IMG/VR virus record: IMGVR_UViG_3300035670_000101 | Span: 1-64,000 of that record | Length of the DNA: 64,000 nucleotides | Reading direction: 5' to 3' (one strand) | DNA from: a virus | In this document: positions 6,780-19,252 of the stretch, piece after piece | Layout: each line of letters begins with the position of its first letter | Position numbering within the stretch: the first letter of the stretch is position 1 | The notes under the pieces: generated by a model | Seen by the model: the letters and a program-made list of their open reading frames with translations, nothing else | Databases searched by the model: none | Told to the model about the DNA's origin: nothing | Translations under genes and position numbers: made by a program

Positions 6780-7189
6780 TGGATTATAAACTTACAAACG
6801 GTAAACTCTCATTGTTGGGTGGAGATATTCAACTGACTTCTGATTACTTTGATAGTATTGCACAAAGACTTTATATTCGACTTAAATCAAACTATGGTAA
6901 ATGGTTTTTAGATACAACTTACGGTGTTGATTACTACGGTAAAATCTTTGGTAAGGTTAGAAATAAAACTCGTGTCGATCTCTTGCTTAAAGATGAAATC
7001 TTAAAAGAAGAAAATGTTGTTAGAATTACTCGATTCATTTCAACAATTGATAATAGAACACGTAACTACAGTTGTGAATTTACAGTTCAGTTGGTTGGTA
7101 TTTCAGCAGAAACTCAATACAGAATTATTACAACACAAAATGGTTTTGCCCTTTTAACACAAAACGATAAATACATTACAACACCTTAA
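6779..7189 (+). CDS. Baseplate wedge/sheath initiator (gp25-like, DUF2634-like)
   Basis: 'IAQRLYIRLK...GKWFLDTTYGVDY' motif; ATG at 6779 overlaps the upstream stop. Confidence 0.8.
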   Translation: MDYKLTNGKLSLLGGDIQLTSDYFDSIAQRLYIRLKSNYGKWFLDTTYGVDYYGKIFGKVRNKTRVDLLLKDEILKEENVVRITRFISTIDNRTRNYSCEFTVQLVGISAETQYRIITTQNGFALLTQNDKYITTP

Positions 7190-7215
7190 CTAGATGGATA
7201 TTGGAGAATACTAAA

Positions 7216-8670
7216 TTGGCAAAATTTACAGAGAATGGTTTTGAGATTGATGGGTTAGTTCAAATCAGAGAAAGGTTAACAAACAGTGCTAATGCTAAGT
7301 TTGAACCACTACTGAACGGTCAAACATTATCAACAGATGATAGTAGTGTTATTGGTAGACAGCTTGGTATTTTATCAGAATCATTGGCACTACAAGAAGA
7401 AGCTTTACAAGCTGTAGTTGCATCTTTTGACCCACAACAAGCAGCAGGGAGTGTTCTAGATGATCTTGTTTACCTAACATTGGGTGATCACCGTTTAGAT
7501 TCTGATCCAGCTTTCGGGTTACTTATTGTTTTTGGTACAGTTGGTAGTGTTATATATGAAGGTGCTAGTGCAAGAAGCAGAGTAACGGGTGATGTATTCA
7601 ACCTAGATAACCCTGTTATTTTTAATACTACAGCTTGTAATGGTGTTGAGTTTGATGTGGTTTTAAGCTCCGTAGAGAGCGTTTATAGATTAACCTATGG
7701 TGTTGAAGGTAAACCATCAGAAAACCCTCCTATCGAGCTTCTATCGCTTCCTACTGATACTAAAGAAACATTAGCTGCACGTATTGCTCAAACAATAAAT
7801 TCACAAACATCTGACCTCGTAGCTACAGTTACCAACTCAAACAAAGTTAATGTCTATATTAGAAATAGAGTGGATGTGGGATTCTTTAACACAACAACAA
7901 ACCTACCTATTGAATCTTCTTACATGCCTGTATATTCAACAAGTGCAACATACACGGCAGTTTCTCAAGATGCTGATACAGTTACTCAGATTAATAGCGG
8001 TGCAACTTCTGGGTGGTTGAATGTAACAAATCCTTACGCAACAGCAGAAAGTACACCTGTCGAGAGCGATACAGACTTACGATATCGTTGGAGATTATCT
8101 AAAGCTTCAAATGCTTTTGGTGACTATGATGCAATGTTGTCTTCTCTCCTAAGAGTGCGTGGTGTTAAGTTTGTAAACATTCAGCAAAACATTACATCAC
8201 AACCTAATGGTGAGAGAATTAATCAGGGTGTAAGTGTAGTTGTACAAGGTGGTAATGGTCAAGCTGTTGCTAACGAGGTGTTCAGAAATCTACCTATTGG
8301 CACAGTTACAAATGGCACAGAGGAATATTTTGTTTCCGATATTACGGGTACAAATCATTCTGTAAAATTATCAAGACCAAACTTAATTCCTATTAAAATT
8401 TCAATGTCTGTTAAGGCTCTACCAAACTTCCCTACAAATGGTAAGAATATGATCAAGCAAGCAATTGTTGATTACTTCAACTCATTAGATGTTGGTGAAG
8501 ATATTCTGTATTCTCGTCTATTTGATCCTATCAACACAATTCAAGGATTTAGTGCAAACAATTTAAGAATTGGTAAAGTTTCAGGTAATCTTGGTGTTGA
8601 TGATATTGTTCTTAAGTTTAATGAACTTGCAACAATACGCCCAGAAGATATTCTAATTGGTGGTAGTTAA
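7216..8670 (+). CDS. Baseplate J-like wedge protein
   Basis: 'FDPQQAAGSVLD', 'ESDTDLRYR' motifs; SD GGAG then TTG at 7216. Confidence 0.85.
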   Translation: MAKFTENGFEIDGLVQIRERLTNSANAKFEPLLNGQTLSTDDSSVIGRQLGILSESLALQEEALQAVVASFDPQQAAGSVLDDLVYLTLGDHRLDSDPAFGLLIVFGTVGSVIYEGASARSRVTGDVFNLDNPVIFNTTACNGVEFDVVLSSVESVYRLTYGVEGKPSENPPIELLSLPTDTKETLAARIAQTINSQTSDLVATVTNSNKVNVYIRNRVDVGFFNTTTNLPIESSYMPVYSTSATYTAVSQDADTVTQINSGATSGWLNVTNPYATAESTPVESDTDLRYRWRLSKASNAFGDYDAMLSSLLRVRGVKFVNIQQNITSQPNGERINQGVSVVVQGGNGQAVANEVFRNLPIGTVTNGTEEYFVSDITGTNHSVKLSRPNLIPIKISMSVKALPNFPTNGKNMIKQAIVDYFNSLDVGEDILYSRLFDPINTIQGFSANNLRIGKVSGNLGVDDIVLKFNELATIRPEDILIGGS

Positions 8671-11692: not shown

Positions 11693-14158
11693 ATGTCTAC
11701 ATTAAGAATATCTGATGCACCTTTACTACCAGATGTTGAAGGAACAGAAAAAATCCCTACGGGTGGTCGTGGTGATTATGCAATATCTGTAGATCAAATT
11801 AAAGGTCACATCTTTCAGGATATTGGGAAAGAACTTGTTGGGTTAGGTAATGTAGACAATACGTCTGACCTAGACAAACCAGTTAGTACAGCTCAACAAG
11901 CAGCTTTAAACCTAAAAGCTGATAAAACTTACGTTGACACCAACTTGGATTTAAAAGCTGATAAGACAAATGTGTATACACGATCTGAAACAACCTTAGC
12001 ATTAAGTCAAAAAGCTGACCTTGTTGATGGTGTTGTTCCTGAAAACCAAATACCAAGTTCTTTTAATGATGTTTTAGAATTTACAACACCTAACCTACCT
12101 ATCGTTGGTGAAAGTGGGAAAATCTACGTTACAACAGATAATAATAAAACTTGGCGTTGGGGTGGGAATAAATATGTAGAAATTTCCGGCTGGAATCCTG
12201 ATTCAGTTTCTAAAACCTCAACTTTACCAACATATTATACAAAAGAAGCAGGTGTTGATTCAGTCACAGGTGTTACCGATGGTGCGTACTATAATGTGCG
12301 CTCAACGGAAGATGATACGATGTTGGTTGAGTATCAGAATGTTGGGGGTGTGGGCACACCGTCTGGAAAGTCATATCCTAGCAATATGACCAAATGGGAT
12401 GCTTCAGCAATTTTTGATGGGGATAAAAACCAGCATGAGTTAAACAATTTTTTCAAGAGTCAAAAGTTAATTGACACGCGTTTATATGGACTAAAAGTCA
12501 ATACAGGTGAAGATCAAACCGCAGCTATTCATGCAGCCTTTGCAGATAATCCTAATAACCAGTATTTCTATATTCCAAAGGGTGTTGTAAAAGCTAACGT
12601 TGTGTTTCCACGCGCTTATATGTATCTTGTTGGTGATGGCTTATTAAACACAATTATTGAGCCATTCGACTTAACAAAGTCACCAGTCAATTTCAACAAA
12701 AAGCTTTACGCAGGATTGACTGACTTGACAGTTCAAGCTAGTCAACAGTTTACAGGTGAGAGCTTGGTTAATGCACAAGAAGTTCGCTACATGCACCTTG
12801 AGAACTTTGACGTCCGCAAGACTAAACTGGCAGAAGAAACTCATTCATATCAAACTATATTGATCGACAACAGAGCTATCGCGGGATCGTGGACAGGCTA
12901 CAATAGACTGCATAACGTTCGGGCGGTTTACGGAGCTTATGGTTATCTTGCAGACGTTGATAAGCTAAACTCAGTTCTCAGCATCAAAGATAGTCTTTTT
13001 AGTTTTAATGGTTATTTTAATATTAAGACATCTGCCTCGAACTCGACAATAATCAACTGTGACATTGCGAATGGCGGGAAGTTGCAACCTGCTGGTGTTT
13101 ATGACGAAACACAGTATGGTGGAGCGTATATCAAAGGGGACAACTCGGTAATCTTGGGTGTATGGCATGAGATTAATGCTCAAGCGAGCCCATCGTATAA
13201 TTCCAACAACTTGTACATTCACCCTGACTCGTGGAACATCACACATAATTTTGCGCGTGATACACGCGGGACAAACAATGTTCGTGTTTACACACAATCG
13301 CAGGGACAGCTACAGGATGTAAACACTGCCGATAGGTCATTAAATGACGGTCAAGGTAGAGCCAGACCGCAGCAATTAATCAAGAACGGTAACTTTGCTC
13401 ACTGGGATTCTTCCCTAAATAGACCTAAGGGTTGGTCTGGTTACTTCAGTGGAACATGGACACAGGAAACTACTGACCTGCCTAAAGGGTATAACGCTGG
13501 ACTCAAAGTTGTATCAGATGTTGCAGGCGTATGTGGTATCTACCAAGCAATATACAACCCTACAGACCTATCTAACTCATATATCAAAGATATTAGCAAG
13601 TGGATTGGACGAGAGATTAGCGTTTCTTTTTGGGTTAAAAATATCGGTACGTCTGAGACAGCTATTCGCGGGGGGATTTCGATAGACTTGTCTAATGTAT
13701 ATTTCTCAAGCGGGACGTATATATCTACCACTAAGGTTGGAGAGTTTACCAAGGTGGTCTTAGCAATCAAGGTTACTGGTTCTGAGGAAAGGATTTGGGC
13801 AGGTATTCGGGTTTCTGGCGTGGGCGAGGGAATGATTGTTGCTGGATACTCGGTAGCAGACGACTGTAGAGTTAATGACTCTCAGGCAAAAACAATCACC
13901 GAAGATGGTGGCGAAGTCTTTGGGAGCCTAGAGGTTCGCGGCACATTAACAAACAATGGTGTGCAACCAGTGTTCCAACCTACCGCAGTAACCACAACGG
14001 GTTTAACAAACGCCACTGGCTCAATCAACACGGTTGGAAAGTTTGCAGGGAAGCAGGTGTTTAATAACACGAACTCGCTGATGTACTACGCTTTAGGTTC
14101 TAGCGCAACAAGTGCATGGAAATCATTTGATAGTACAAATACAATCACTCCAGCATAA
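11693..14158 (+). CDS. Tail spike/receptor-binding protein, probable capsule depolymerase (beta-helix plus carbohydrate-binding module)
   Basis: N-terminal 'GLGNVDNTSDLDKPVSTAQQAAL'; pectate-lyase-like start 'YGLKVNTGEDQTAAIHAAF..YFYIPKG'; 'QLIKNGNF' CBM-like domain. Confidence 0.8.
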   Translation: MSTLRISDAPLLPDVEGTEKIPTGGRGDYAISVDQIKGHIFQDIGKELVGLGNVDNTSDLDKPVSTAQQAALNLKADKTYVDTNLDLKADKTNVYTRSETTLALSQKADLVDGVVPENQIPSSFNDVLEFTTPNLPIVGESGKIYVTTDNNKTWRWGGNKYVEISGWNPDSVSKTSTLPTYYTKEAGVDSVTGVTDGAYYNVRSTEDDTMLVEYQNVGGVGTPSGKSYPSNMTKWDASAIFDGDKNQHELNNFFKSQKLIDTRLYGLKVNTGEDQTAAIHAAFADNPNNQYFYIPKGVVKANVVFPRAYMYLVGDGLLNTIIEPFDLTKSPVNFNKKLYAGLTDLTVQASQQFTGESLVNAQEVRYMHLENFDVRKTKLAEETHSYQTILIDNRAIAGSWTGYNRLHNVRAVYGAYGYLADVDKLNSVLSIKDSLFSFNGYFNIKTSASNSTIINCDIANGGKLQPAGVYDETQYGGAYIKGDNSVILGVWHEINAQASPSYNSNNLYIHPDSWNITHNFARDTRGTNNVRVYTQSQGQLQDVNTADRSLNDGQGRARPQQLIKNGNFAHWDSSLNRPKGWSGYFSGTWTQETTDLPKGYNAGLKVVSDVAGVCGIYQAIYNPTDLSNSYIKDISKWIGREISVSFWVKNIGTSETAIRGGISIDLSNVYFSSGTYISTTKVGEFTKVVLAIKVTGSEERIWAGIRVSGVGEGMIVAGYSVADDCRVNDSQAKTITEDGGEVFGSLEVRGTLTNNGVQPVFQPTAVTTTGLTNATGSINTVGKFAGKQVFNNTNSLMYYALGSSATSAWKSFDSTNTITPA

Positions 14159-14160
14159 AT

Positions 14161-14183
14161 AAAAGCCCTTCGGGGCTTTTTTA
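14161..14183 (+). terminator. Rho-independent terminator of the late operon
   Basis: AAAAGCCC-TTCG-GGGCTTTT followed by a T-run. Confidence 0.9.
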
Positions 14184-14306
14184 TTATTCACAAGAAAGTG
14201 CTACTATAAGAAAAACTTATATCGGGGTTCGGCGTGGAGTATTTTACAAAGAGCTTATATACCTAACAGTCTGTTTAGTGAGTGTAATTAAAGAATGAAT
14301 ATCAAC

Positions 14307-14344
14307 AACCCACTGAGAGTAATCTTGGTGGGTTTTTCTTTTTG
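14307..14344 (+). terminator. Rho-independent terminator
   Basis: AACCCACTGAGA-GTAA-TCTTGGTGGGTT followed by a T-run. Confidence 0.8.
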
Positions 14345-14350
14345 TCAAAA

Positions 14351-14395
14351 GTTTTTATTTCCTTTTAGTTCAATAAACATGTTTTTATTTCCTTT
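14351..14395. repeat. 15-bp direct repeat pair GTTTTTATTTCCTTT
   Basis: Exact copies at 14351-14365 and 14381-14395, upstream of the rep promoter. Confidence 0.85.
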
Positions 14396-14399
14396 CAGG

Positions 14400-14429
14400 T
14401 TTACATTCACACTTAACAGTGGTAAATTT
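14400..14429 (+). promoter_or_regulatory. Sigma70-like promoter of rep, overlapped by one iteron copy
   Basis: TTTACA-17 nt-TAAATT; AACAGTGGTAAATTT at 14415-14429. Confidence 0.65.
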
Positions 14430-14459
14430 AACACACTTTAATTTATTCGGAGATTTACA

Positions 14460-15383
14460 ATGAGTGTCAATGCTACACGTTTTGCGTGGGAATGCGATTT
14501 ATCAAAAACAACAAAGAGAAGTGCTAAACGCCTTGTTCTTTTAGCTTTAGCAGATCGTACAAATAAAGAGAACACTTGCTTCCCATCAATTGCAAGAGTT
14601 GTTAAGGATACTGGTATGGATAGAAAGACTGTTATGAATACAATCAATGACCTTATTACTCTAGGTCTTATATCAGATACAGGTGAACGTAAAGGAGGAA
14701 CTAATCAAGTTCGAGTGTTAAAGATTAATGTTGTTAAACAAGGAAGTTATCCACAGGGAGATCAAGAATCATCAAATAAACAGGGTGGAATTTACAAAGA
14801 AACAGTGGTAAATTTACCAATAAACGGTGTGGAATTTCCTAGTAACGGTGGTAAATTTGGGACACAGAATCTAAAACAATCTTTAATTAAATCTAAAAAT
14901 AATCTTAACAGTGAAAAAGATTTTAATCTAGATGAAGAAATTGTTTTAAAACCAAAACAACTGGATTTTATTGATAGTAGTGAAATCATTGTTGAAAGTG
15001 TACGTGAGAGCTTAAAAACAGCACATAACAGCTTGAATACAGAGGTAGGTGGTACGTATGTACCTGAACAACAAAACAACGCTATAGATAGCATCTACGA
15101 AGACGTAGATACCTTACACAGCGATATGCAGAAACCTAAGAAACAACAAGACAAAAGTTCTTGGATTCCAAAACACTTGTACGCTGAACACATGAAACAG
15201 AAGCGTCTTGATGAACAACTTAATAAAGAACCCTTCATCCCTAAGAGCATGATTAAAGGGTGGGAAGATGGTATGAAAGGAAACCCTAATGCGACAAAAG
15301 GTATTCCTGATCACTTGTTAAACAATCCAACTCTTGCTAAGATATTGAAGATGAAAGGCAAGAGCACAAACAACAGTGTTTGA
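14460..15383 (+). CDS. HTH (HTH_36-like) phage replication initiator protein
   Basis: 'RLVLLALADR....CFPSIARVVKDTGMDRKTV...I..L...GLI.DTGERKG' as in lambdoid/Acinetobacter prophage Rep proteins; internal iterons. Confidence 0.8.
   Translation: MSVNATRFAWECDLSKTTKRSAKRLVLLALADRTNKENTCFPSIARVVKDTGMDRKTVMNTINDLITLGLISDTGERKGGTNQVRVLKINVVKQGSYPQGDQESSNKQGGIYKETVVNLPINGVEFPSNGGKFGTQNLKQSLIKSKNNLNSEKDFNLDEEIVLKPKQLDFIDSSEIIVESVRESLKTAHNSLNTEVGGTYVPEQQNNAIDSIYEDVDTLHSDMQKPKKQQDKSSWIPKHLYAEHMKQKRLDEQLNKEPFIPKSMIKGWEDGMKGNPNATKGIPDHLLNNPTLAKILKMKGKSTNNSV
14747..14960. other. Putative replication origin inside rep: DnaA box, 4 iterons and an AT-rich tract
   Basis: TTATCCACA at 14747-14755; repeats at 14779, 14801, 14823 and 14844 (21-22 bp period); AT-rich sequence follows. 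Confidence 0.7.
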
Positions 15384-15400
15384 TGTATTTAGGAGATGTC

Positions 15401-15658
15401 ATGGATAAAGTGGTAGAGTATAAAATTGAAAGACGTATTGAAGATGTTGTAAAGAATCGCAAGTGGTTATTCTTCTGTGAATACGAGAAAACTCCTGTTT
15501 GGTGTTTGGTTAAGTACACTTCAGGTACTCGTTATGAGTTTGACACTTATGGACATTGTGATCTTTTGGATTACCATCACCAAGAGGTTTTACTTAAATC
15601 TCAAGATGAAGATTACATTAAACAAGAGTTTAAGAATTTTACGGAGGGTTTAAAATGA
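15401..15658 (+). CDS. Hypothetical protein
   Basis: SD AGGAG; coupled operon ORF. Confidence 0.7.
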   Translation: MDKVVEYKIERRIEDVVKNRKWLFFCEYEKTPVWCLVKYTSGTRYEFDTYGHCDLLDYHHQEVLLKSQDEDYIKQEFKNFTEGLK

Positions 15659-15972
15659 TTAAAGATTTAATTGGGAAGTATTGTTTGGTTTACATGACAC
15701 CAAGTAAGACTGAATTTAGACCAGAGATTAGCGTTATTACAGGTGTTAGTAAAAACTATCCAGACAGCTATGTGACGTTAGATAATGATGTAAATGGTGG
15801 TTATCACATTCGATCACTTTTGAGTTCTGATAATAAGAAAACATTAGAGGAAGTTTTAAAGGTGCAAGAGGTTTATCTAAAAGAACTAAGTGACTTGCGA
15901 AACAAGATTCACAACTTAAAGAAAGAGCACTCGGTTGTTATGAGTAAGATGGTTAAGGAGATTAAAGCTTGA
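15655..15972 (+). CDS. Hypothetical protein
   Basis: SD GGAGGG; overlapping start/stop. Confidence 0.75.
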   Translation: MIKDLIGKYCLVYMTPSKTEFRPEISVITGVSKNYPDSYVTLDNDVNGGYHIRSLLSSDNKKTLEEVLKVQEVYLKELSDLRNKIHNLKKEHSVVMSKMVKEIKA

Positions 15973-16199
15973 AAGATAAAAGAACACTTATAGATAAAAT
16001 CTTGTCTGAATATTGCGACTATCTTGGTGTAACTTGGACAGACTTACATGAGGAAGCTTTCTGTGTTCAACACAAAAGAGGATATTGGTTATATATTTGG
16101 TATGACGAGTATGATCACATACCTGTATCTATTTATTTGAAGGAGCTTGAGTCTTTAATGTATGAGGGTGTACTTAACATTAAGGAGATTAAAGAATGA
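15969..16199 (+). CDS. Hypothetical protein
   Basis: SD AAGGAG with TTG start. Confidence 0.7.
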   Translation: MKDKRTLIDKILSEYCDYLGVTWTDLHEEAFCVQHKRGYWLYIWYDEYDHIPVSIYLKELESLMYEGVLNIKEIKE

Positions 16200-16396
16200 A
16201 TCATGGTTGGTATGAAATTATGGATCGTATTCATATTATTCAGAATACGTTAGATGACAATGTAAGAAACCATCGAGAATCTGATGAACAGCTACGACAT
16301 TTGATTGATGCAGCACAAGAGATGCTAAGTGAAGCGTATAATTATGCTGGAATTAAGTGGGATGAAAGTTTTAGAGATTTTGAGGAGGGTTATTAA
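16196..16396 (+). CDS. Hypothetical protein
   Basis: SD AAGGAG; ATGA overlap. Confidence 0.7.
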   Translation: MNHGWYEIMDRIHIIQNTLDDNVRNHRESDEQLRHLIDAAQEMLSEAYNYAGIKWDESFRDFEEGY

Positions 16397-16617
16397 TGAG
16401 TGGATATGGTAAAGCAAAGAAGTTTATAAACAAACACGGTATTGAGTTTACTTTGAAATGGTTAAGTGAGAATATCGCACACACTCCGACACATGGTAAG
16501 TACGTTGATATTGATAATGAGTTAAATCCAAAGGGCATCATCAGCACAAATTATTATGGTGGATTCCATGTAGAGCATTTAGTTAAACTTAGTGGTTATA
16601 AGTTTAGTGTTGGATGA
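16396..16617 (+). CDS. Hypothetical protein
   Basis: SD GAGGAGG; TAATG overlap. Confidence 0.7.
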   Translation: MSGYGKAKKFINKHGIEFTLKWLSENIAHTPTHGKYVDIDNELNPKGIISTNYYGGFHVEHLVKLSGYKFSVG

Positions 16618-16654
16618 TGTTATTTATCATTGAGGAGGGTGTCTAACGACATGT

Positions 16655-17953
16655 ATGATTGAATTAAAAACAATACCGAAAGAGGAGCGTAACAGTATCA
16701 TCTGTAACTTGGAATACTTCTCTTTCTTAATATGGAGAAAAGACACTTGTTTGAAATCTGCACACAAAACCCTTATTGATATTGTAGGTAAGAAATTTGA
16801 ACAAGAACTTTGGGTTGTCCTTACACACATTGGTCAGGCAATTAGATATGGTACAGACGGATATAGAATTTCATTTAATGATCATCACTATTCTTCGGCA
16901 AACAAACGATTTAATGTTAAACTATCATCAAGAAGGATGAAAGAGTTACTGTGTATTTTACATTGTAAAGATTTTATAAAGTTCTACTTAGGGTTTTATC
17001 ACAAGAATGTCGATAGCGAACTTAGTGCTGTAATTATCAATGAGAGAATATTAAACCTTCTCAACATTCCCTTGTTAAAATCTCAAGGTGTTAAGCGAGA
17101 AGAACCTAAAGATGATATTGAGGTTGTTAATGATGAGCTAACAGTTGTTACTAAATCTTATAATGTGTCTACAGGGCAGATGAAAAAACGTAAATCAATT
17201 GTATTTAAAGAGACCAGAGGCATGACAGGTATTACCGAATTAAAGAGAAACTTAAAGGCTTATAACAGCCTTATTGAGAAACACAAAACAACCATTGATT
17301 TAGGTGATGGAGATAAAGAGTGTAACAATATTATCTACAAACGTAGATTCCAGAACAATCTTCACACTTGTGGTAGATATTACACTAAGTCTGTATTTCA
17401 GACGTTACCAAGTGAGTGTAGAAAGTCTATTAAGATTGATGGGGAGGATACGGTAGAGTTAGATATTAAATCAGCTCATTGTACGTTCCTTAGTACGTTA
17501 GATGGAATCACTCTACCAGATGATTTCGATTCTTACACAATTCCTAAGCTGATTGAATTAGGGGTGAGTAGAGATTTCACTAAAGGGATGTTGTTTCCCT
17601 TACTCTTCTCTAAGAATAAAGCTAGTGCTATAAAAGGTATTAGATTAAAACTTAAAGAGTATGGATTATCACATCTTAGTGCTGAGTATATGATTGAATG
17701 TTTTGTTGAGCATAATCCGTTTATTGAGGAATACTTATTCTCTGAACAGTTGTATGGTGAGTTACAATATATTGATGCTTCTATTGCTACATTAGTTATT
17801 GATCACTTTACAGAGAAAGGTATTGTTGTATTGTGCTACCACGATAGCTTTGTTATTCAGAAGATGTATAAAGACCAATTGTATTCTAAGATAGAAGATA
17901 GTTACTTAGAAGTATTAGGTGATACAACTAACTTAGTCATAAGAGAAGTTTAA
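16655..17953 (+). CDS. Minimal PolA/T7-RNA-polymerase-superfamily polymerase (TV-Pol-like)
   Basis: 'TCGRYY' (DxxGR-like), motif A 'ELDIKSAH', motif B 'RDFTKGMLFPLLF', 'LQYIDASI', motif C 'YHDSF'. Confidence 0.7.
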   Translation: MIELKTIPKEERNSIICNLEYFSFLIWRKDTCLKSAHKTLIDIVGKKFEQELWVVLTHIGQAIRYGTDGYRISFNDHHYSSANKRFNVKLSSRRMKELLCILHCKDFIKFYLGFYHKNVDSELSAVIINERILNLLNIPLLKSQGVKREEPKDDIEVVNDELTVVTKSYNVSTGQMKKRKSIVFKETRGMTGITELKRNLKAYNSLIEKHKTTIDLGDGDKECNNIIYKRRFQNNLHTCGRYYTKSVFQTLPSECRKSIKIDGEDTVELDIKSAHCTFLSTLDGITLPDDFDSYTIPKLIELGVSRDFTKGMLFPLLFSKNKASAIKGIRLKLKEYGLSHLSAEYMIECFVEHNPFIEEYLFSEQLYGELQYIDASIATLVIDHFTEKGIVVLCYHDSFVIQKMYKDQLYSKIEDSYLEVLGDTTNLVIREV

Positions 17954-18112
17954 TCTTTATCTACCACTTCTGCTGATAGAGTATTATACATCGTTATAGT
18001 GCTCTATATAATACTAATAGTAATAACCTAGTAGGGTACTATAGGTATTATAACAAGGGATTGTTTGAATAGTGTTGTAAGTGTATGATAGTGTTTAGTA
18101 AATCAGAAAGTA

Positions 18113-18139
18113 TGGGGAGGGGTATTCTCCTATTTTTTT
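18113..18139 (+). terminator. Probable terminator after the polymerase gene's structured 3' region
   Basis: GGGAG...CTCC hairpin followed by T7. Confidence 0.55.
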
Positions 18140-18166
18140 GGTATTATCAGTTTTTTAAGTTATGAT

Positions 18167-18213
18167 TTGACACCTCCTTAGTATGTGTGCATAATTAATT
18201 TAATATTTAATTA
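18167..18213 (+). promoter_or_regulatory. Sigma70 promoter with palindromic operator
   Basis: TTGACA-17 nt-CATAAT, then TAATTTAATATTTAATTA. Confidence 0.8.
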
Positions 18214-18226
18214 AATGGGTGTTTTG

Positions 18227-18376
18227 ATGTTATATGATAAATTTGATAACAGTAAAAAACTTTGCTACAGGTGTTTGAATTTCGATACACCTAAAATAAA
18301 GAAAGGTAAGGATAAGTGGTACAGACATTACTTTGTTTGTTGTAAGAAATGTGGTTGCAAGGTTTTCTTTAGTTGA
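18227..18376 (+). CDS. Small zinc-ribbon protein (49 aa)
   Basis: CYRC...CKKC; first ORF after the promoter; below the ORF-track size cut-off. Confidence 0.55.
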   Translation: MLYDKFDNSKKLCYRCLNFDTPKIKKGKDKWYRHYFVCCKKCGCKVFFS

Positions 18377-18387
18377 TTGGAGTTACA

Positions 18388-18531
18388 ATGTTTATTGTTA
18401 AAGAAGAAAAGAGTTATGGTGACACTATTCGTGTTGATTATGTGAGTGAACGAGTAGCTAAACTTTTCAATTACGATAGGGAGAAGATTCCACATTACTT
18501 GTGTGGTTTTTATATTAAGGTGAGTAAGTAA
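18388..18531 (+). CDS. Hypothetical protein (47 aa)
   Basis: SD GGAG; TAATG overlap with the next gene. Confidence 0.55.
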   Translation: MFIVKEEKSYGDTIRVDYVSERVAKLFNYDREKIPHYLCGFYIKVSK

Positions 18532-18965
18532 TGAAAAAGACTAACACAGTGATTCACATTGATGCTGATAAATTCTACAATATGGTTTGGGACGGGTTTA
18601 TGAACTTCCAAGACTTTATCTTAGAGAAGGGTGGAGCTAATCTTACAGTTGAAGAAGCTTACAATGAATTATTGAAAGCATATGAGAGTAAAACTTTGTT
18701 TGGTAAATTATTCTGTAGGAAGTTGAAAACTCTTGAGGAATACTCTAAAGATTACAGTCCAAGTAAAAACTACAAGGATTATTTGAATCGTTACGAGCAT
18801 TTCTATGACACTGATCAAAGGTTCTTGCGTCTAGAGCGTGTTACATCAAGTGTTATTAAAAACAATGTTGTTATTGATGTGTCAATTTCTGATTACGATT
18901 TTGTTTTAAATTGGATTGACAATAGTGATGATTTCAATGTACAGTACAATTCATGGATTTACTGA
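18531..18965 (+). CDS. Hypothetical protein
   Basis: 144-aa ORF in operon. Confidence 0.75.
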   Translation: MKKTNTVIHIDADKFYNMVWDGFMNFQDFILEKGGANLTVEEAYNELLKAYESKTLFGKLFCRKLKTLEEYSKDYSPSKNYKDYLNRYEHFYDTDQRFLRLERVTSSVIKNNVVIDVSISDYDFVLNWIDNSDDFNVQYNSWIY

Positions 18966-19045
18966 TTGCATCAGCAAGAATTATTAAACAAGTTAATACG
19001 ATACGCTAACTTGAGTTAGCTTCACAGATTAAGAAAAGGTGTTAA

Positions 19046-19228
19046 ATGAATAAACAACAATTTACTAAAGCTGTTATTAAAGAGTATCAAGAACAGACAG
19101 GCGATTACATTGCAAAAGACGATTACCAATATGAACCAATCGTAAGTAAGGTTCATATGCTATTTCATAAGGGCGTTTCTATTGAAGAAGCTGTAGATGA
19201 GTTAGATAAGTTTATTGATAATATGTGA
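19046..19228 (+). CDS. Hypothetical protein
   Basis: SD AAGGTG. Confidence 0.65.
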   Translation: MNKQQFTKAVIKEYQEQTGDYIAKDDYQYEPIVSKVHMLFHKGVSIEEAVDELDKFIDNM

Positions 19229-19252
19229 GAGATAGAAGTCAGGAGTGTATAA

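Follow-up and report, generated by a model that had tools for sequence, protein, structure and literature searches.

The TV-Pols are minimal polymerases which belong to the superfamily of the family A DNA polymerases and the T7-like RNA polymerases. They were predicted to be primase-polymerases in 2008 (Iyer, Abhiman and Aravind 2008, PMC2579912). Their core contains only thumb, palm and fingers, in proteins of 400–600 amino acids (aa) without any nuclease, and it has a signature: one Arg in a hairpin, a pair of Asp in the palm, and an Asp together with an RxxxK motif in the fingers (PMC2579912). TV-Pols with an extra N-terminal domain are found in small elements formed by a recombinase and a polymerase (PMC2579912). 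P0001, the protein that we have studied, is like them in its size, in its minimal core, in the residues of the signature and in the presence of an additional N-terminal domain. Its gene is found in the virus record IMGVR_UViG_3300035670_000101, which has 93,394 bp; the first 64 kb of this record are the window analysed here. As judged from its sequence and its predicted structure, P0001 is catalytically intact and belongs to the TV-Pol branch. It is probably an active enzyme, previously unannotated, which bears a winged helix and is coded in a phage replication operon.

Other features of the TV-Pols are also shared by P0001 and its family. They are found in phages with their own replication enzymes. 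In both cases the bacterial members come from the same taxa, for example Rhodobacterales, and have integrases or resolvases as neighbours. The N-terminal domain of the TV-Pols was predicted to be all-helical (PMC2579912), whereas in P0001 it is a winged helix. The genomic context is also different from the one described for TV-Pols (PMC2579912): P0001 belongs to a virulent-type phage of about 93 kb, and neither a recombinase nor an adjacent D5-like helicase was found in the ORFs (open reading frames) which were scanned at its locus, namely ten neighbours compared with PHROGs and ten larger ORFs of the window.

A second system of interest is CCPol-MP of SCCmec (PMC7581432, PMC10061031). Like P0001, it has a small A-family polymerase without exonuclease, assigned to the proposed TV-Pol group and carried by a mobile element. 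CCPol-MP is a primase which uses deoxynucleoside triphosphates (dNTPs; PMC7581432), and it demonstrates that de novo priming is possible for this fold (PMC7581432, PMC10061031). There are two differences. CCPol requires a small partner with an OB-fold, MP, whereas P0001 has a fused winged helix and no partner was detected for it by a PHROG scan. Furthermore, CCPol keeps the PolA residues which exclude ribonucleotides, whereas in P0001 the steric-gate Glu is replaced by a His.

The two large groups of the superfamily should also be compared. The T7-like RNA polymerases, including N4 RNAPII and the mitochondrial enzyme, have the same architecture of palm and fingers as P0001 and similar GRxY and HDSF-type motifs. 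They also prime replication origins: T7 RNA polymerase and mitochondrial RNA polymerase make RNA primers at their origins. However, P0001 has half the size of T7 RNA polymerase, nothing matching the N-terminal promoter-binding domain of the latter was seen in it, and it has no match to Pfam RNA_pol (PF00940). The family A DNA polymerases (Pol I, T7 gp5 and the PolA of the phage itself) give the best structural matches and have motifs A, B and C in the same order. P0001 differs from them by the absence of a 3'–5' exonuclease domain and of any match to Pfam DNA_pol_A, by the His for Glu change in motif A and by a motif B which does not have the Y-G of the O helix.

Fold and catalytic residues

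The features of the locus are collected in Table 1. P0001 has five motifs in the order CGRYY (residues 239–243), ELDIKSAH (268–275), RDFTKGMLFPLLF (306–318), LQYIDASI (370–377) and YHDSF (395–399). The ORF and the order of its motifs had been noted in a previous examination of the DNA letters alone, which we will call the sequence-only reading. The motifs are not due to chance, since their columns are conserved among homologues. We collected 41 homologues and aligned 29 of them; among the relatives, P0003–P0006 have 72–84% identity. The alignment shows little or no variation at G240, R241, R256, D270, D292, Y294, R306, K310, L370, Q371, D374, H396, D397 and S398. In a wider set of 69 homologues, with a mean column identity of 17%, seven residues are fully invariant (R241, R256, D270, Y294, R306, K310 and D397) and another seven are close to it (G240, E268, D292, L370, D374, H396 and S398). 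The protein is under clear purifying selection.

Table 1. Position in the window of the polymerase gene, its domains and the surrounding features
Feature	Position	Strand	Details
TV-Pol-type polymerase gene (P0001)	16655..17953	+	432-aa ORF
Ribosome-binding site of the P0001 gene	16634-16639		GGAGGG
N-terminal winged-helix domain, presumed DNA-binding	16751..17089	+	Residues ~33-145; model of the domain alone
Polymerase core (thumb, palm, fingers)	17102..17950	+	Residues ~150-432; Foldseek, VIA, invariant columns
Hairpin 1	17976..18007 (17976-17988/17995-18007)	+	13 pairs with two U-G wobbles, 6-nt loop
Hairpin 2	18007..18052	+	Compound stem-loop
Hairpin 3	18059..18103	+	
Intrinsic-terminator-like stem and T run	18115..18141 (stem 18115-18131)	+	GGGAGGGGTATTCTCCT; end of the initiator-to-TV-Pol operon
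Sigma-70-type promoter of the next gene block	18167..18195	+	TTGACA-17-CATAAT, 11/12 matches
AT-rich palindrome	18195..18214	.	TTAATTTAAT/ATTTAATTAA; one copy of a motif repeated intergenically across the genome
Terminator at the start of the initiator operon	14307-14334		Precedes the initiator gene, as does a promoter-like site
Iteron-like repeats (three)	14415-14429, 14801-14815, 14844-14858	+	AAC[AG]GTGGTAAATTT; before and inside the initiator gene
Replication initiator gene (O-like / DnaD-like, HTH_36)	14460..15383	+	First gene of the operon
T7 gp4-like primase-helicase gene	20917-22668		
Full family A DNA polymerase (PolA) gene	22681-24756		

A structure was predicted with AlphaFold2 from the alignment of 29 sequences, with a mean predicted local distance difference test score (pLDDT) of 90.6 and a predicted template modelling score (pTM) of 0.87. 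When it was compared with the PDB by Foldseek, 91 matches were found at E ≤ 1e-3; among the matches listed, all are family A polymerases. The best ones are apPOL, Bst and Taq, with E values from 6.5e-6 and a probability of 1.0. An independent comparison with VIA gave the highest Z scores for apPOL (13.9, with 238 residues aligned and a root-mean-square deviation, rmsd, of 4.1), Aquifex Pol I (13.2), yeast mitochondrial RNA polymerase (13.1, 326 residues) and Pol nu (12.5), followed by Klenow (12.3), T7 DNA polymerase (12.2), T7 RNA polymerase (11.9, rmsd 3.5) and, at a greater distance, N4 RNAPII (7.9); Pol theta falls within 13.9–11.3. All these polymerase matches span residues ~150–432 of P0001, and the first unrelated fold appears at a Z of about 6.

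In the model D270 is found at the end of strand 264–271, and H396-D397 in the hairpin 392–395/398–402; as modelled, this placement is the usual geometry of motifs A and C. G240-R241 lie within strands 228–244, while R306 and K310 are at the start of helix 306–318. The sequence-only reading had proposed an AlphaFold model as a check of the palm fold: a polymerase-domain fold is indeed found, with D270 on the motif A strand and D397 in the motif C hairpin.

The N-terminal part was also modelled alone (residues 33–145, pLDDT 86). Nearly all of its top 50 structural matches are winged-helix domains, such as those of Nse3, CodY, ORC/Cdc6, Fur/PerR, MarR and TFE, with Z scores of 4.6–6.1 over 70–94 aligned residues. 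Since these scores are modest, we consider the assignment consistent rather than strong. Pfam HTH_34 gave weak matches in two of the 69 family members. The winged helix and the core together make up the protein; no nuclease family was matched in Pfam, and the absence of an exonuclease domain, which had been stated from the letters, is confirmed. The same reading described P0001 as a stand-alone minimal polymerase. The core is minimal, but it is not a bare core, since it carries the winged helix at its N-terminus.

Sequence databases say little about P0001. In PHROGs it corresponds to phrog_4756, of 'unknown function' (E 4e-79). A Pfam scan gave a sub-threshold match to Zn_ribbon_ACC alone, NCBIfam gave no match, and searches of the PDB with the sequence and with a profile gave nothing useful. 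A Zn ribbon at residues 222–239 was rejected: there are only two Cys, which are not conserved in the family.

A large family of phages and bacteria

A profile search of 1.84 billion representative sequences showed that the family has 10,922 representative clusters at E ≤ 1e-3, of which 4,383 have E ≤ 1e-30. It is a large family, and not a rare one. Most clusters have 400–560 aa and are matched over their full length. Neither Pfam nor NCBIfam has a model for it, and in a Pfam scan of the 69 diverse members there was no match to any polymerase model, DNA_pol_A and RNA_pol included.

The family occurs in ICP1, in T5-like vibriophages, in Acinetobacter-type phages and in many marine Alphaproteobacteria. 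The bacterial loci (n = 426) belong mainly to Rhodobacterales, SAR116 and Methylophilaceae. In 45 of these loci we examined the 126 proteins found within two genes of the polymerase: 11 are Phage_integrase and 5 Resolvase, and the rest belong to unrelated housekeeping families. The clade of P0001 aligns with the bacterial members by hhalign over 395 columns, including the N-terminal domain (probability 100, E 3e-43); by BLASTP, P0001 matches a Loktanella protein with E 9e-14. The strong links are with Rhodobacterales proteins of the type listed in PMC2579912.

The invariant and nearly invariant residues of the family agree with the published signature of the TV-Pols: R241 is the hairpin Arg, D270 and D397 the two palm Asp, D292 the finger Asp and R306/K310 the RxxxK motif. 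Because of these residues, of the recombinase context and of the alignment to the bacterial members, we file P0001 as a TV-Pol. The TV-Pol-type minimal polymerase which had been recognised in the sequence-only reading is thus supported by the fold, the invariant residues and the context of the family.

Pseudoalteromonas phage J2-1 (MF370964.1) has two paralogues far apart, in positions 7019–8320 and 69158–70552. Several other phage records also have two matching places, so that paralogues at distant positions are present in some large phages. A literature search on ICP1 gp100 and on new minimal RNA polymerases found nothing relevant.

Genomic setting

The gene of P0001 closes an operon which starts with a replication initiator, since a terminator is found on each side (Table 1). 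The tail genes end before it, at 14158, also with a terminator. After the initiator there are five small ORFs of unknown function, then the TV-Pol gene and finally its terminator. The genes for a primase-helicase and for a full family A DNA polymerase follow within 5 kb after the TV-Pol gene; the latter had already been recognised as a separate enzyme of the phage.

The association with the initiator is found in two diverged phage lineages. In L003, a relative with 57% identity, 57 nt separate the end of the homologous initiator gene from the start of the TV-Pol. Downstream of the TV-Pol, L003 has no match to positions 12000–27000 of the window, which was the stretch compared. Since the linkage of initiator and TV-Pol is kept while the downstream synteny breaks, we consider it a conserved feature.

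The region between these two genes is variable. L001, a close relative with 97% identity, contains an insertion of about 370 nt, in which there are two small ORFs, directly upstream of the TV-Pol (L001:5576–5969, compared with ~16620–16655 in the window). The small ORFs have 0–88% nucleotide identity per 100 nt, far more variable than both flanking genes. No tRNA or tmRNA was found in the window.

Outside the window, in positions 73210–74475 of the genome (minus strand), there is a P-loop helicase-like gene with no Pfam match. In Vibrio phage VH-8 and Psychrobacter phage D'Alembert the initiator is followed by a gene with the annotation 'putative RNA helicase', whose product has 39% identity to this helicase-like protein. 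We considered that the TV-Pol might be an in-situ replacement of the helicase-like gene of D'Alembert and rejected it: the phage has that gene elsewhere, and the initiators are non-homologous.

Proposed role in replication

Our preferred reading, which we hold with even confidence, is that P0001 acts as an accessory primase-polymerase at the initiation of replication, targeted to a site and co-transcribed with the phage initiator. The winged helix would bind DNA and place the protein on a specific target site. The core would then start a short nucleic-acid chain de novo, or extend one. D270 and D397 would hold two metal ions, R306 and K310 would bind the incoming triphosphate and R241 would contact the primer-template. 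Afterwards the primase-helicase and the replicative PolA of the phage would take over. The priming activity is suggested by analogy with CCPol-MP of SCCmec. A role as origin primase had been proposed in the sequence-only reading together with a cognate element adjacent to the gene; the role is reasonable because the gene sits in the replication module, while the adjacent element found no support, as it is described below.

Several observations weigh against this proposal. Since a DnaG-type primase-helicase is already coded by the phage, the need for a second primase is not obvious. The cultured phages which are nearest by their PolA have no homologue of the TV-Pol: D'Alembert (58.5%), VH-8 and Acinetobacter phage Herod. 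No replication partner recurs in 18 other viral loci, whose neighbours are diverse, and in ICP1 the homologue gp100 is found among small early genes. No MP-like or SSB-like (single-stranded DNA-binding) partner was seen beside the gene, with no SSB-like PHROG among the ten small neighbouring ORFs. With the profile of 69 sequences there was no match at E ≤ 1 to the TV-Pol of Microcystis phage Ma-LMM01; as a positive control, the same search detected ICP1 gp100 and the two paralogues of J2-1. To our knowledge, CCPol-MP is the only TV-Pol with an assayed activity, and there is none from the winged-helix branch. Two further points concern the product of the enzyme. The steric-gate position, five residues after the motif A Asp, is H275 in P0001 (ELDIKSAH), and His or Gln in the family. 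A divergent member of 580 aa, L019:2978-4717 (IMG/VR contig 3300010943_000171), which is related to the family with an hhalign probability of 99.8, matches Pfam RNA_pol PF00940 with 31 bits (cut-off 22) over its C-terminal 140 residues only. An RNA product is possible because of these two points.

DNA or RNA as a product

The PolA Glu at this position of motif A is the steric gate against ribonucleotides, and in T7 RNA polymerase Y639 reads the 2'-OH. The PolA of the phage has this Glu at position D+5 of its motif A (ADLSSLE). It should be asked whether P0001 could be a minimal single-subunit RNA polymerase, in which the winged helix would recognise an origin or a site similar to a promoter and the core would either transcribe a few phage genes or make an RNA primer for replication. 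Several features speak for it, beginning with the His which replaces the steric-gate Glu. The likeness of the fold to yeast mitochondrial and T7 RNA polymerases equals that to the DNA polymerases; the GRxY and HDSF motifs are T7-like, since T7 has IHDSFGT; and L019 appears, by its sequence, to be a bridge between the TV-Pol family and the single-subunit RNA polymerases. One Atlas cluster of the family has been automatically named 'DNA-directed RNA polymerase family protein'. The best local segment found by hhalign is also with the RNA polymerases of T7, SP6 and phiKMV (P 0.038, 72 columns), with R306/K310/F318 of motif B opposite R627/K631/Y639 of T7.

However, this same alignment places F318 opposite Y639, so that the Tyr which reads the 2'-OH is Phe in the clade of P0001 and Asn in most of the family. 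The hhalign scores should be taken with caution: with the DNA polymerases of T7, SP6 and phiKMV P is 0.05–0.33, and as sequence comparisons both sets are weak and non-discriminating. Other facts go in the same direction. CCPol-MP, the only TV-Pol assayed, uses dNTPs; no repeated promoter motif specific to the phage was found, and what recurs in its intergenic regions are promoters of the sigma-70-like type and an AT-rich palindrome; and related phages do without the gene. On balance we find a minimal RNA polymerase unlikely.

A possible selfish element in the phage

It may also be considered that the gene of P0001 is the replication gene, or its remnant, of a small selfish TV-Pol element, which would serve its own spread and maintenance rather than the replication of the phage. 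The bacterial relatives are found in minimal islands with an integrase or resolvase and a TV-Pol amid housekeeping genes, and a TV-Pol element was reported inside phage Ma-LMM01 (PMC2579912). The distribution among phages is patchy, with the closest relatives lacking the gene; the contexts vary, often at the boundaries of modules, and J2-1 has two copies. Against it, the scanned ORFs, ten neighbours and ten larger ones in the window, contain no integrase, resolvase or transposase, and no repeat family flanks the gene among the 20 largest listed. Furthermore, the place after the initiator is kept between lineages only 57% identical, and the protein is under purifying selection. This explanation appears to us rather improbable, even less likely than an RNA polymerase.

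The structured region after the gene

Between the stop codon of P0001 and the next start, at 18215, there is a non-coding stretch of 261 nt. It contains small ORFs of only 26 and 27 aa, without support. The hairpin with 13 pairs and two wobbles, the second hairpin and the terminator which had been described from the letters are all present, although the second one is a compound stem-loop (Table 1). Hairpin 1 is 85% complementary as DNA, whereas as RNA it is fully paired through its two U-G pairs. The folding energy of positions 17954–18145 is –53.3 kcal/mol in the plus strand (z –3.1), compared with –28.5 kcal/mol in the minus strand (z –1.7). This is a real structure, specific to one strand as would be expected of the 3' end of a transcript. 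It is not exceptional in this genome, since z ≤ –3 on one strand is found in about 8 of the 33 intergenic regions. Rfam gave no match at the gathering score in the window; the best one for positions 17900–18260 has E 0.33, far below that score.

The comparison of the hairpins is based on the two IMG/VR relatives, L001 and L003; a scan of JGI metagenomes for close relatives gave distant matches only, and a scan of genomes gave none. In L001 the downstream region is 90–95% identical and folds well (z –3.8), but its conservation is uninformative because the flanking coding DNA is equally conserved. Hairpin 1 is identical in L001. In hairpin 2 there are three substitutions which break pairs and are not compensated, and the region refolds in a different register. 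In L003 hairpin 1 is deleted: homology stops about 18 nt past the stop codon, and its own 3' flank has unrelated hairpins (z –2.3). ICP1 gp100 and the J2-1 homologue are directly followed by the next gene, with no non-coding gap, and the gap has less than 20 nt in about half of the 18 viral loci. Conservation of the hairpins beside homologues, which the sequence-only reading had set as a check, is not seen in L003.

The simplest interpretation of the 190 nt behind the gene is a 3' untranslated region, with stabilising hairpins and the terminator of the operon, followed by the next promoter. The suggestion that the polymerase acts on the adjacent element (17954–18140) as a single-stranded DNA template, an origin or an RNA partner has in its favour the strong, strand-specific structure, its identity and folding in L001 and the fact that in SCCmec CCPol-MP starts preferentially at a site in a putative origin, which lies downstream of its operon, but it is very improbable in view of the hairpins which are lost or changed without compensation, the missing gaps, the similar folding of other intergenic regions, the lack of an Rfam family, the equal conservation of the flanking coding DNA and the terminator with a strong sigma-70-type promoter behind it.

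Candidate origin and intergenic signals

An origin is likelier to be found 2–3 kb upstream, in the iteron-like repeats which lie in and at the initiator gene. From its sequence this region is a candidate replication origin and autoregulatory operator, in a lambda-like arrangement. A direct repeat of 20 nt, AAAGTTTTTATTTCCTTT, is also found at 14349 and 14378.

The AT-rich palindrome found before the start of the next gene is one of a group. Sequences like TTAATTTAATATTTAATTA recur in intergenic positions, with 12 matches at ≤3 mismatches compared with 0.28 expected. Besides 18195–18214, they are found at 26347, 44064, 44467, 55032 and 58877 in the window, and at 68467, 74951, 76691 and 77754 in the rest of the genome. 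Some are placed just after the –10 box of sigma-70-like promoters, others just before the –35 box. Judging from these positions, the palindrome is probably the binding site of a regulator or a UP-like element common to many promoters.

No intergenic region of the genome is more strongly structured than positions 26363–26548 (plus strand, –44.2 kcal/mol, z –4.9 to –6.5). This region has a long hairpin at about 26438–26496, just after a TTGACA-type promoter, and no match in Rfam.

Significance

The winged-helix branch of the TV-Pols is very common, yet it has no model in Pfam or NCBIfam and is of 'unknown function' in PHROGs. If P0001 is an ordinary helper of the phage, the main gain will be the correct annotation of thousands of 'hypothetical proteins'.

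A bolder view, which we regard as a long shot, is that P0001 is among the smallest self-sufficient sequence-specific polymerases known: an enzyme of about 430 aa, guided by its winged helix, which starts chains de novo at its own site and possibly makes RNA. It would be a portable unit of one gene for origin firing or transcription, able to pass from phages to small integrative elements and back. In this phage the 3' structure would be part of its target.

If site-targeted initiation is true, a compact enzyme which recognises a site and initiates a chain would explain how the minimal elements with an integrase plus one gene are replicated. In large phages it would add an accessory route of initiation. 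The enzyme might also provide a useful small polymerase scaffold.

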